Source: Armatimonadota bacterium
GTDB taxonomy: Bacteria > Armatimonadota > UBA5829 > DTLH01
Length of the DNA: 39,943 nucleotides
Direction: 5' to 3'
NCBI GenBank assembly: GCA_039680575.1
Contig: JBDKSP010000014.1
Span: 1 to 39,943, forward strand
The notes beneath the pieces were generated by a model that saw nothing but the letters and a program-made list of their open reading frames with translations, made no database searches and had not been told where the DNA came from. The translations under genes were made by a program, and so were the position numbers. Shown piece after piece: positions 9,755 through 33,648 of the stretch. The first letter of the stretch is position 1, and every line of letters starts with the position of its first letter.

Positions 9755-11536
9755 TTGGGGTATTTTCTTGTGAAACGGGCACACAGCAGCTCAAAGTCGA
9801 AAAGGTCTCGGGATAATTGGCGGCTCATACGCCGCACTTTTCCGATGCTGAGAGTGCATCGGTGGCGCTTTGTGGTAGCCGGGATATTCACGGCGTTTTC
9901 GGCATCGACCGTTCCCACGATGCCGATGTTCACGAGATACGTGATTGATAACGCCATTCCTAAAAAGAACATCAGGCTGGTTATTTACGTTATGGTATTT
10001 TTTGTGGTGCTGATGCTTTTGCGGATCATCACTTACTACATAGCGCAATCTCTTCTGCTGTTTGTTCGGGAAAAACTGATATTCGATCTGCGGAAACTGG
10101 TCTTCACGCGTATGCAGGAGCTCTGCCTGCGTTTTCACCAGCGCTATACACCTGGGTACCTGTATGACCGCACACTGGGCGCAACCTCGACTTCTATCGG
10201 GATATTCCTTAATGCGTTCTTTCAAATTGTAGTCAACTCAGGTTCAAGTATGGTCATTTCGATCTTGTTCTGCTGGCACTTGAGTCCGTTAATGACGCTC
10301 ATTGAGCTGAGCATGAGTATAGTCTATGTCTTCATCAGCAAACACTACGGAGGAATTATCCGGTCACTCAGCAGGGAGTTCAATGTAGAATCAAACGAGC
10401 TTGCAGGAAGACTCACGGATCTGCTTCGCGGCATAAAGACCATCAAAGCATTTACTATGGAAGGCTGGGTGATTGAAGAGTTCGAAGAACGCACCTGGCC
10501 GCTCCAGATGCGGAGCCTGGATATCAACAAGACGACATTGAGATTGGGTCTCTCCGGGGAGTCCGTCACCTATTTTATTACCGCTATCATAACGGTGATG
10601 AGTGCGCATTTGGTAATTCAACAAGAAATTACGATTGGAACGATGGTCGCATTTCTCGCCTATCAGACAATGCTCATGGGCAGTGTTGCATCGTTATCCA
10701 ACACTGCTGCAACCTATGGTTCAGCCATAGCCGGTCTTGAGCAGTTGTTTGAGGTCGTAGATGAAAAATCCTCGGTGGCGATAAAACCGGATGCAGCTAT
10801 GCCGGACAAGCTGGACGGAAGACTCTCGCTCGATGATGTCTATTTTGCCTACGATGACAAGCCGATAATAGATGGACTGAGCGTAGATTTTGAGCCTGGG
10901 CAATCTGTGGCGATTGTGGGGCCGAGCGGCGGAGGAAAGACTACGCTTATAAACCTGCTGCTTCGTCTATACGACCCTGAAAAAGGCTGTATAAGGCTTG
11001 ACGGGCATGATATACGGGAACTGCCGCTTTCGGGCTATCGCAGCCTTTTTGGAGTGGTCTTACAGGACCCGTTTCTGTTCAACGATACTATCTATAATAA
11101 CCTGCTGGCCGTCAAGCCGGATGCGACTCATGCGGAGATCCGTGAAGCGTTGGAACGCGCGCATGCGTGGGAATTCGTCAATAATCTGGACGGCAATTGG
11201 TCTTTCAATGTCGGCGAGAACGGCGGCCAACTCTCCGGGGGACAGCGCCAGAGGATCGCCATCGCGCGCTGTATACTGACAAACCCTCACATACTCTTGT
11301 TTGATGAGGCAACATCCGCGCTGGATAACCAGTCAGAAGCCCTTGTGCAAAGTGAGATCGAGGAGATAATGCATGACCGGACGGTCTTTATAGTGGCTCA
11401 CCGCCTCAGTACAGTGCGGAAGGTAGACCGGATACTAGTCCTGGAAGACGGGAAACTTGTACAGGATGGGACTTACGATCAGCTTGCAAAAGAACCCGGG
11501 CTATTTCACGATCTTGATGCTCTGAGCTTGCGATGA
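9755..11536 (+). CDS. ABC exporter, fused permease/ATP-binding (MsbA/Sav1866-like); start could be GTG 9770
   Basis: N-terminal multi-TM domain, GPSGGGKTT, LSGGQRQRIAIAR, FDEATSALD, AHRLST. Confidence 0.93.
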   Translation: MGYFLVKRAHSSSKSKRSRDNWRLIRRTFPMLRVHRWRFVVAGIFTAFSASTVPTMPMFTRYVIDNAIPKKNIRLVIYVMVFFVVLMLLRIITYYIAQSLLLFVREKLIFDLRKLVFTRMQELCLRFHQRYTPGYLYDRTLGATSTSIGIFLNAFFQIVVNSGSSMVISILFCWHLSPLMTLIELSMSIVYVFISKHYGGIIRSLSREFNVESNELAGRLTDLLRGIKTIKAFTMEGWVIEEFEERTWPLQMRSLDINKTTLRLGLSGESVTYFITAIITVMSAHLVIQQEITIGTMVAFLAYQTMLMGSVASLSNTAATYGSAIAGLEQLFEVVDEKSSVAIKPDAAMPDKLDGRLSLDDVYFAYDDKPIIDGLSVDFEPGQSVAIVGPSGGGKTTLINLLLRLYDPEKGCIRLDGHDIRELPLSGYRSLFGVVLQDPFLFNDTIYNNLLAVKPDATHAEIREALERAHAWEFVNNLDGNWSFNVGENGGQLSGGQRQRIAIARCILTNPHILLFDEATSALDNQSEALVQSEIEEIMHDRTVFIVAHRLSTVRKVDRILVLEDGKLVQDGTYDQLAKEPGLFHDLDALSLR

Positions 11537-11610
11537 CCAGGTGTATCTATTCGCGACCGGGCATTGTTTCCGTAAATCCTGATAAGTCATCTTCCCGCAC
11601 CGAAAAAGAT

Positions 11611-11638
11611 GCAGGAAGATTCGTGATAGATGTGGAAA
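11611..11638 (+). promoter_or_regulatory. sigmaH-like promoter candidate for the structured RNA
   Basis: GCAGGA(11611-16)-N18-GAAA(11635-38), resembling the AGGA-N17/18-GAAT consensus. Confidence 0.4.
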
Positions 11639-11644
11639 GGGTAC

Positions 11645-11844
11645 ATGTTCGGTAGATGTGGTGGCCTATGAGGCTGCGACTCGGCGTTTGGGATGAGGAG
11701 ATGCGGGACTATCCTCTTGGCGAAAGCCTCCCCCGACTCTCCATCGTTTGAGGCGTCGAAGATCAGCATCAAGAGAGGGTCCATTTTGGGCCTGCGGGCT
11801 AGACCACGAGCCCCATATCCTCTTAAAGATGGGACGCCGGATGT
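11645..11844 (+). ncRNA. candidate structured non-coding RNA, unassigned
   Basis: Nested stems with many G-U pairs on the + strand, a GAAA tetraloop and 5'/3' end pairing; no credible ORF. Confidence 0.6.
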
Positions 11845-11903
11845 GAGCCGGGCACGGGAGACGTTCGGGGTAACTTCGAGTCTTTCGCGCCGGGCTCTTT
11901 ATT
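11845..11903 (+). terminator. long terminator-like hairpin closing the candidate ncRNA
   Basis: gagccgggcacgggagac…gtctttcgcgccgggctc followed by TTTATT. Confidence 0.6.
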
Positions 11904-11916
11904 GTACCAGACCCTT

Positions 11917-12903
11917 ATGGAACCCCGAATAGAGACGATTACAGTTGAAGACGGAGCAGGCGAACGCATCGACGCGTTCATAGCTGCAAGAATACCGGAA
12001 CTCACCCGGTCCGCGGTCGGCCGTCTCATAGATGAGGAGCGGGTCACTATCGGCGGCGCGCCGGTCAAGGCCAAGCACAAGGTGAAAACAGGCGATGAGA
12101 TAGTTGTCGAGATCCCCCCACCCGCGCCAACGGACATCAAAGCTGAGGAAATTCCTCTCGAAGTTGTCTACGAAGACTCCGATATAATCGTAGTTAACAA
12201 GCCCAAGGGCATGACGACCCATCCCGCCCCCGGTTCTCCCGCCGGAACGCTCGTCAACGCGCTCCTTGGCCGCACTACCGGTCTTTCCGCTGTCGGCGGA
12301 GTACAGCGGCCTGGAATAGTCCACCGGCTGGACAAAGACACATCCGGTCTGATAGTCGTTGCAAAAAACGATGCGGCTCATACGAGCCTCCAGTCCCAGA
12401 TTCAGAAAAAAACGGCTGGCAGGAAGTACATCACGCTCGTCTGGGGCGACACGAAGTTCGAAAAGGCGGTAGTAGACGCGCCCATAGGACGCCATCCGGG
12501 TGATCGAAAGAAGATGGCAGTCGTCATGAACGGCCAGGCAAGACCGGCTGTGACGGACCTCAGGGTGATGGAACGGCTTTCCGGGTTTACGCTTCTTGAA
12601 GCCTCGCTTCGGACCGGCAGGACACACCAGATAAGGGTCCACTGCGCGTATATCGGCCACCCGGTGGTCGGCGACCCCGTCTACTGCGGCAGGAGGCATC
12701 CTCCCGGCAGGTTCGGTCCCAAAGACAGGCTGGAGTTCGAGCGATTAGTCGAAACTCTTAAAGGGCAGGCGCTTCACGCATACAGGCTTTCGTTCGACCA
12801 CCCACGCACCGGGGAACCGATGTCGTTCGAGACTCCCATCCCCGATAATATGGCCTCGCTGATCGACTGGCTGAGAGCGCGGACGGGGAGCAGCGGGAAG
12901 TGA
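11917..12903 (+). CDS. rluD: RluA/RluD-family 23S rRNA pseudouridine synthase
   Basis: S4 domain (RIDAFIA…TRS), VNKPKGM, catalytic HRLDKDTSG, TGRTHQIRVH, GDPVY, QALHA; ATG 11917 preferred. Confidence 0.95.
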   Translation: MEPRIETITVEDGAGERIDAFIAARIPELTRSAVGRLIDEERVTIGGAPVKAKHKVKTGDEIVVEIPPPAPTDIKAEEIPLEVVYEDSDIIVVNKPKGMTTHPAPGSPAGTLVNALLGRTTGLSAVGGVQRPGIVHRLDKDTSGLIVVAKNDAAHTSLQSQIQKKTAGRKYITLVWGDTKFEKAVVDAPIGRHPGDRKKMAVVMNGQARPAVTDLRVMERLSGFTLLEASLRTGRTHQIRVHCAYIGHPVVGDPVYCGRRHPPGRFGPKDRLEFERLVETLKGQALHAYRLSFDHPRTGEPMSFETPIPDNMASLIDWLRARTGSSGK

Positions 12904-13605: not shown

Positions 13606-13944
13606 TCAGAGCTTTTCTTTCTCGCCGCTGATATCGAACAACTGGTCCAGCCCCACAAGCCGCATTATGCGCATAACATTAGGCCGAACACCCACTATAC
13701 GCGCCGGACCATTGCTGTTTGTTTCTATTATTCTTGCGTCGACAAGGGCTTGAACACCAGAGGAATCGAAGTAGGTCACGCCGCCGAGATCGATAGTGGG
13801 CAGGCATCCGGTATCTTTTGCGCATGCGACCAGAGCATCGTAAAGCGTAGACGCTGTGTTCATATCCACCTCGCCGCTTACGTGCACTGTCCCATCTTCG
13901 ACCGTGCAGGTAAAGAACATATCAGAGTAATCTAAATCGAACAC
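13606..13944 (-). CDS. STAS-domain anti-sigma-factor antagonist
   Basis: VSGEVD…IDLGGVTYFDSSG (phosphorylatable Ser motif)…RIMRLVGLDQLF. Confidence 0.9.
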   Translation of the reverse strand: MFDLDYSDMFFTCTVEDGTVHVSGEVDMNTASTLYDALVACAKDTGCLPTIDLGGVTYFDSSGVQALVDARIIETNSNGPARIVGVRPNVMRIMRLVGLDQLFDISGEKEKL

Positions 13945-33328: not shown

Positions 33329-33554
33329 TCTAACGTCCCCTCCCTTATGCCAGGTACGCCCTCGTAAGTCCATTAAGGCATGCATTTCGGGCGACAAACA
33401 TGCACCTGACATTGATTGATGTATGGCTTGCAGCCATACTGAAGATTCTCCAGTCAGAGATTATCGGAGAAAACAGGTAATTTCCTCAGGTCTGTGATCC
33501 TCTCAACTCTGGCATAAGCTTTATGGAAGTTGAGATAGTAAGTGGTAGAGCTTA

Positions 33555-33648
33555 AGATAATGGCAAACTCGTCGAAAGGCGGGGACGCAAAGCCAATGGG
33601 GCTAAAGTCCGGGAACTGACCCGGATAATGCTTGCCAGGTTGCCGAAG
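33555..33648 (+). promoter_or_regulatory. cyclic di-GMP-I (GEMM) riboswitch aptamer
   Basis: GGCAAAC-tcgtc-GAAA-ggcgg-GGACGCAAAGCC…GGGGCTAA…GCCAGGTTGCC matches the class-I consensus. Confidence 0.93.

Follow-up and report, generated by a model that had tools for sequence, protein, structure and literature searches.

The locus analyzed here raises the question of what fills the 380-nt gap (11537-11916) between the gene of an ABC exporter and rluD, a gene encoding a pseudouridine synthase, in an Armatimonadota bacterium (GenBank assembly GCA_039680575.1, genome G000 in this study). The window, that is, the whole stretch of 39,943 nt that was analyzed, is contig C14 of this genome (JBDKSP010000014.1). 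An initial annotation had placed in this gap a stand-alone structured non-coding RNA (ncRNA), possibly undescribed, and the proposal is supported: the gap carries on its plus strand a predicted ncRNA (11647-11900) that belongs to a real, conserved family of structured RNAs of narrow range, for which a function can only be proposed. The RNA has no significant match in Rfam, occurs in single copy and not as a dispersed repeat, shows covariation in the alignments of its homologs, and is covered by contigs (contigs only) from RNA libraries.

Homologs and Their Distribution

A BLAST search gave matches in 11 of 61 related genomes, G000 included, and nine of these 11 matches adjoin rluD. The rluD locus could be collected from 52 of the 53 genomes of the class, and a conserved 17-nt motif was found upstream of rluD in 29 genomes of the order and 1.3 kb further up in another one (G033), in which ~1.3 kb separate the RNA from rluD. 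A model of the 3′ hairpin built from these 30 genomes (R1) reached 57-75 bits in 30 of the 36 genomes of the order, a circular result for the genomes used to build it, and gave one weak 30-nt match in 17 sister-order genomes. The 5′ third of the RNA was also found at a contig end in G015, a cut copy that brings the RNA-bearing genomes to 31, and the RNA is lacking in G002, G011, G014, G024, and G029. On a quick rluD tree, this presence pattern requires three changes, such as a single gain plus two losses. In G002, the region ahead of rluD (L078) still has the promoter and the initial bases of the RNA, the rest of which has decayed, a natural loss. The insert of G033 contains a 105-amino acid open reading frame (ORF) on the minus strand (L172, 1663-1980) that resembles a helix-turn-helix antitoxin by eye.

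Among 185,579 species genomes, the motif pattern was matched 56 times, 26 times with the flanking stem and 30 times without the stem of the 3′ hairpin (P7); the 26 stem-bearing matches come from 16 genomes titled Armatimonadota and 10 unclassified ones. In metagenomes, 36 of 51 pattern matches were true according to R1, of which 35 have rluD within 700 nt, the other being cut by a contig end; taking metagenome and viral pattern loci together, 36 of 53 score above 54 bits in R1, and both viral matches are false. Duplicates were removed, as were three copies in which the 5′ end could not be located, which left 54 distinct RNAs. When R1 was run over 150 genomes of the phylum, six matched, all within the order, and 150 genomes from the phylum of G320 gave no match, a search with no positive control. 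A sequence-only model (R2) added eight weak matches (14.7-18.7 bits), and the six inspected all lacked the hallmarks of the RNA. Searches of phages and plasmids returned no match to the RNA. Homologs outside the order were not found in these searches, in which the covariance model was that of the 3′ hairpin, so that a homolog sharing the 5′ fold only could escape them. The RNA family is restricted to one Armatimonadota order, known here only from assembled genomes.

The stretch occurs once in G000, and the model search of class genomes found one copy per genome; the extra weak matches in four genomes correspond to the opposite strand of the same 3′ hairpin. A repeat or mobile element was rejected because no dispersed copies exist. 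The ORFs upstream of the RNA fall into 18 clusters among 29 genomes, i.e., the upstream neighbors are variable.

Consensus Secondary Structure

In the consensus fold, which is supported by covariation, two three-way junctions are nested, P1/P2/P6 outside and P2/P3/P5 inside, with P4 as a variable arm, and the 3′ hairpin follows them. The closing stem P1 (11647-53 with 11836-42), already recognized in the initial annotation, is backed by the homologs, with 97.8% of the alignment cells paired and one pair showing two-sided change, and is lost in G010 and G013. The same applies to the ggtcca/tgggcc hairpin, now P5 (11777-11793), with 96.5% of cells paired and one pair with two-sided change. The hairpin proposed at 11661-77 did not hold: its place is taken by P2 (11658-67 with 11796-11807), 85-88% of whose cells are paired in A8, an alignment of the 46 short-type members, and the main partner of its GCUG lies downstream, within P3 (11672-11767; GCUG 11673-76 with CAGC 11764-67), in 26 of 29 homologs; in the other three, G000 among them, it lies upstream (G003 omitted). 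The GGCUGC sequence of P3 is near-invariant, being identical in all 46 rows of A8 and divergent in G003. The long arm of the initial annotation is backed by the homologs as the variable arm P4 (11681-11759), which is carried by P3 and is long in the family of G000 and in f3 and short in f2; whole-RNA lengths are 173-197 nt in 46 members versus 234-264 nt in eight. The second variable hairpin, P6 (11812-11833), shows two-sided changes in six of six pairs, with only 71.6% of cells paired in a poor alignment; G023 and L235 lack it. In the consensus fold, other pairings take the place of catc/gatg, aagag/ctctt, and gggct/agccc. The variants G010 and G013 (L083 and L086), without P1 pairing, and G003 (L079), without the GGCUGC motif, all have an intact 3′ hairpin.

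In A8, 90% of the cells are paired versus 39-47% in slid controls, two-sided changes affect 26 of 62 pairs (a count as high in 8 of 500 shuffles), and the covariation score was reached by none of 500 shuffles. The same helices were recovered by RNAalifold on the 46 short-type members.

The 3′ hairpin P7 (11845-11897) is the best-conserved part of the RNA, with a GAGCC/GGCUC base, a variable internal loop, and a covarying middle stem. In its alignment (A5), 96% of cells are paired, 9 of 19 pairs show two-sided change, and the score was reached by 0 of 500 shuffles, with slid controls far lower. The near-invariant 17-nt tip (11863-11879) is formed by a GU bulge, UCG/CGA, a bulged U or G, GG/CU, and a GNRA tetraloop (11870-73). 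Among the 54 members, the loop is GCAA in 31, GUAA in 11, GAAA in nine, GCGA in two, and GUGA in one, and the bulged base is U in 48 and G in six. The tip therefore varies at three places only, consistent with a GNRA loop plus one bulged base; the five tip pairs never vary, so the register of the tip was deduced from where the variation falls. A U-rich tail follows (11898-11903) and could be a possible intrinsic terminator, with one terminator-like site found versus a shuffle mean of 0.4. The final hairpin had been described as a terminator, but it is more than that: it is the best-conserved domain, and only 25 of 53 loci have five or more T within the 8 nt that follow it. A GTAC sequence lies within 20 nt 3′ of the final hairpin in 37 of 53 loci, including the window (11904-11907), and may be an RNA tail, a processing site, or part of a promoter.

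The fold of the initial annotation equals the single-sequence minimum free energy structure of this stretch, and the positions given for the 380-nt gap, the closing stem, the long arm, the GAAA-capped hairpin, and both copies of TATCCTCTT were right. Folding is specific to the plus strand (z -2.88, with none of 200 shuffles as good), whereas the minus strand gave z -0.18 (77/200); the whole 11647-11900 stretch has a folding z of -3.09, and values of -2 or lower were obtained for 51 of the 54 distinct members. The consensus fold is only 2.0 kcal/mol less stable in G000 than the fold first drawn. The size of ~200 nt turned out too short, since the RNA measures ~250 nt once the 3′ hairpin is included, and its central fold differs. 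Two details do not extend to the family: the GGC-GAAA-GCC loop is found in one of 54 members and is not conserved, and the repeated anti-Shine-Dalgarno-like 9-mer TATCCTCTT is present in two of 54, twice in only one, and is irrelevant.

Promoter, Predicted RNA Ends, and Probable Transcription

The sigmaH-like promoter noticed ahead of the fold is conserved in 30 of 30 genomes. In the window it comprises a -35 region (11611-11619, plus strand, with AGG at 11613-15) and the -10 element GTGGAA (11632-11637), the AA of which is invariant and is preceded by G in 22 and by T in eight of the 30 genomes. The AGG-N19-(G/T)AA motif ends 8-9 nt before the U preceding P1 in all 30, with a background frequency of 4.6e-4 per position. 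This spacing fits the sigmaH consensus cited in PMC4754846, in which AGG and GAA are 18-19 nt apart. The consensus given for sigmaB in PMC9847131 resembles many of the -10 boxes found here but not the -35. A sigH-like gene is present in G000 (C60, 6403-6984; E 6e-69) and in 49 of 53 class genomes, including all 31 that bear the RNA, and is missing in four of the five RNA-less ones. Motif and sigH-like gene being both present, the RNA promoter fits that of a sigmaH-dependent gene, a predicted dependence that would imply expression in the transition or stationary phase. Many f2 genomes carry two or three sigH-like paralogs. In 29 of 52 loci (e.g., L172, L105, and L110), an imperfect palindrome, RGYA-N4-TACY, occupies a fixed position 30 to 19 nt upstream of the AGG and is likely a transcription-factor site; it is not evident in the window.

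In 32 of 53 loci (e.g., L099 and L102), which all belong to the short type, the RNA is separated from rluD by a second sigmaH-type promoter, against ~0.13 expected per locus. An open ATG or GTG follows its -10 element by 9-10 nt in 32 of 32, which suggests that the rluD message is leaderless in those loci. From the -10 element to the first G of P1 there are 9-10 nt in 53 loci, equal to the distance between the downstream promoter and ATG/GTG, and the +1 of the RNA was accordingly placed at this G (G11647 in the window, the first paired base of P1), with a predicted 3′ end at ~11900. The presence of an own downstream promoter for rluD in 32 of 53 loci favors a stand-alone RNA. In G000, rluD starts 19 nt past the 3′ hairpin and, as long-type loci have no second promoter, could be expressed by read-through or from a different promoter.

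Regarding transcription, five of the 24 listed runs contain part of 11500-12100, and four of these five were aligned. One near-identical contig inside the RNA was found in each of the four, which come from three studies, spanning 11665-11862, 11667-11852, 11694-11849, and 11667-11850. The RNA is thus probably transcribed. The flanking genes gave no near-identical contig in the four runs; contigs cannot show absence, and this result was not counted as evidence.

Proposed Function and Alternative Explanations

We assign a probability of roughly 0.55 to the reading that this element is a stable, stand-alone, trans-acting ncRNA that is recognized by its shape and made under a sigmaH-type promoter. 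According to this proposal, a sigmaH-like RNA polymerase would start at the first base of P1, and the transcript would fold into the 5′ domain of two nested three-way junctions and the 3′ hairpin with its bulged GNRA tip. GNRA loops commonly dock into helices, and docking of the tip could give the RNA a compact fold. The RNA would then bind a protein or complex through its shape and not by pairing with an mRNA. Conservation is concentrated in helices, junction bases, and the hairpin tip, and the longest conserved unpaired run is two columns, which argues against an mRNA-pairing small RNA. As the partner, our best guess by analogy with Ms1 or raiA/ModT is the machinery of transcription or translation at the time when growth slows, so that the RNA may accumulate in that phase and bind RNA polymerase or ribosomes. 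The link to rluD would reflect shared sigmaH regulation of two adjacent transcription units.

Several observations weigh against this interpretation. The evidence of transcription consists of contigs, which give no strand, ends, or level and have no DNA control, from runs that were chosen because they contain the stretch and one of which is only guessed to be RNA. Two-sided changes counted along a tree amount to only 1-3 per pair, the shuffle statistics ignore relatedness, and in the mixed alignment of the 5′ domain (A6) the number of two-sided pairs was matched by 224 of 500 shuffles. On the side of the promoter, the sigH-like match is below the curated cut-off, and a SigB/F/G gene is also present in G000 (C21, 25516-26190); the joint loss of sigH and the RNA is a single event on the rluD tree, as the four sigH-less genomes form one clade, G002 retains sigH in the absence of the RNA, and the genome-wide promoter scan was weak (39 matches versus 23 in the control). 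The second promoter is found in none of the eight long-arm loci, that of G000 included. In addition, the RNA is always upstream of rluD, as in the metagenome loci described above, and this unbroken tie keeps alive two readings centered on the neighboring gene.

One of them is a cis-acting leader of rluD, a riboswitch or attenuator whose 5′ domain would sense a ligand or protein and set read-through past P7. This is a minor possibility to be taken seriously, given the fixed place upstream of rluD despite variable upstream genes, the U-rich tail after P7 in 25 of 53 loci, the eight long-arm loci without a second promoter, and the two folds of G000 lying 2 kcal/mol apart. However, a leader is hard to reconcile with the second promoter and leaderless start in 32 of 53 loci or with the G033 insertion; the alternative fold dominates in only three of 29 homologs, and a near-invariant tip is needless for a terminator. 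A median of 15.2 kcal/mol is needed to open the 3′ strand of P7 (less than 5 in only 2 of 54), and no conserved terminator-opening fold was found; this cost, together with the downstream promoter, argues against an attenuator. The other, which we regard as improbable, is that the RNA is dedicated to the adjacent pseudouridine synthase as its substrate, its decoy, or a cofactor of 50S assembly, and that both are expressed together from twin sigmaH-type promoters. The two genes are never found apart beyond the G033 insertion, the same promoter type serves the RNA and rluD in 32 loci, and the enzyme gene of the sister order directly follows a protein-coding gene (lgt-like by eye), all of which would suit such a partnership; against it, the enzyme persists in all five genomes that lack the RNA and in 16 of the 17 from the sister order, the RNA has no similarity or complementarity to 23S/16S rRNA above shuffles, and the internal loop of P7, the would-be guide pocket, is variable. 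A role as cofactor, decoy, or 50S-maturation factor of the RluD-like enzyme by recognition of shape likewise appears improbable, and antisense guiding to rRNA is unsupported. To our knowledge, bacterial pseudouridine synthases work without RNA partners, and an RNA partner of an RluD-like enzyme would therefore be a new kind of system.

The remaining explanations concern the nature of the RNA itself. It is very doubtful that it is a far-diverged raiA/ModT, Ms1, or second 6S RNA beyond the reach of the Rfam models; its similar size and multi-junction build would allow this, and Rfam models are built mostly from other phyla, but none of these families appears at E ≤ 10 for the region or for 20 homologs, a canonical 6S RNA is located elsewhere in the genome, and covariation scans of low power revealed no pseudoknot, whereas raiA has two according to PMC10861870. 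An mRNA of a small peptide, or a decoy ribosome-binding site in which P5 hides a GGAGG-like stretch before ATG, TTG, or GTG, seems highly improbable: a start-type codon occupies the P5 site in 39 of 54 members, the GGAGG-like stretch being seen in short-type members, but 15 of 54 lack a start codon there, the stretch is weak in the long-arm families, and the putative peptides, 7-54 residues long, do not share a conserved frame and are alike in no more than their first few residues. An origin from a mobile or catalytic RNA that was later domesticated has equally little probability. The GAGCC start, 2-nt bulge, and GNRA loop of P7 recall domain V of group II introns, yet P7 exceeds 50 nt and has its 2-nt bulge on the 5′ side, the RNA is a single copy at one locus matching no Rfam intron family, and no phage or plasmid match was found, both viral pattern matches being false.

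The RNA is of interest because large, well-conserved bacterial RNAs have in many cases proved to serve basic functions, and Armatimonadota have supplied few of them so far. More than 50 distinct sequences are available, together with a fold backed by covariation, a predicted start site, a promoter of the alternative-sigma type, and lineages that lost the RNA naturally, so that synthesis, probing, and imaging can begin. In addition, the locus is a hint that a sigmaH-type regulon, with rluD transcribed as a leaderless message, exists outside Bacillota.

Neighboring Features

The RNA is flanked on the upstream side by the gene of an MsbA-like ABC exporter (9755-11536, plus strand), an incidental neighbor. 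Downstream, the RluA-family pseudouridine synthase (11917-12903, plus strand, ATG at 11917) is nearest to RluD, scoring 289.6 bits with TIGR00005, above the cut-off, and 277.5 bits with the RluD equivalog, below its cut-off of 351. A STAS gene (anti-sigma factor antagonist) is located near the locus (13606-13944, minus strand), and a c-di-GMP-I riboswitch lies at 33552-33647 on the plus strand (76.3 bits).

Comparison with Known RNAs

At the gathering threshold, this riboswitch was the only Rfam 15 match in the window, with none at the RNA; at E ≤ 10, the best match for the RNA region had E 1, and 20 homologs yielded a single one, mir-2009, at E 4.6. Housekeeping RNAs were discarded as candidates: the SRP RNA (RF01854), RNase P RNA (RF00010), and tmRNA (RF00023) of this genome have full-length matches on other contigs, and 6S RNA (RF00013) is a rod with a central bubble and not a branched fold, its canonical copy being on contig C42 of G000 (78.9 bits). 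A base-pairing small RNA was also dismissed, as only eight of 60 highly conserved columns are unpaired and no seed was found. The 5′ GUCCG stem resembles the Ro-binding stem of YrlA, a bacterial Y RNA; a Y RNA was rejected because TROVE/Rsr occurs in only three of 53 class genomes (3 of 31 RNA-bearing ones), not including G000.

Comparisons with rRNA were made with genes of relatives, because G000 gave no match to three of four rRNA marker motifs and near-matches only to the fourth. The longest exact matches to 23S and 16S rRNA are within the range of shuffles, and the mean score for sense similarity was 19.3 versus 18.5 ± 1.8 for shuffles. An H/ACA-like guide was rejected since 10-55 of 60 shuffles did at least as well as the duplexes between tip and rRNA; the 23S rRNA of G023 contains an 11-nt stretch complementary to the tip, which seemed striking at first but was equaled by shuffles. 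The 23S rRNA gene of G013 (L280) has 3414 nt versus 2971 in G023, with ~440 extra nucleotides before helix 69 that are a possible intervening sequence.

No description of such an RNA was found in the literature covered, which included few subscription papers, and the main texts of two motif surveys (PMC11109978 and PMC8632094) name no Armatimonad genomes. The family is apparently undescribed, and it may already be listed as an unnamed motif in a survey supplement.

Among known systems, riboswitch and attenuator leaders share with this RNA a structured 5′ domain, a hairpin with a U-rich tail, and a fixed downstream gene; in contrast, a promoter of its own often precedes the gene downstream of this RNA, an anti-terminator fold is not conserved, and the hairpin tip is near-invariant. 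P7 resembles group II intron domain V in its GAGCC start, 2-nt bulge, and GNRA cap, and differs in its greater length, the side of its bulge, and its lack of an intron context or Rfam intron match. Ms1, a stationary-phase RNA reported to bind the RNA polymerase core, and 6S are likewise stand-alone structured RNAs, but the RNA described here is branched, matches no Rfam model, and coexists with 6S in the genome, and polymerase binding is suggested for it only by analogy. PMC10861870 and PMC11706538 describe ModT as acting in trans around the transition phase and using a sigA promoter. The raiA motif/ModT is absent from the Rfam lists at E ≤ 10 for the RNA region and the 20 homologs, and no pseudoknot was detected in column-pair covariation scans, which have low power with 27-46 related rows. 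The present RNA differs from the raiA/ModT RNAs of Bacillota and Actinomycetota in its lack of an Rfam match, its sigmaH-type promoter, its restriction to one Armatimonadota order, and its rluD neighbor; it is like them in its length of ~200-260 nt, its multi-stem structure, its own promoter, and its variable peripheral arms.
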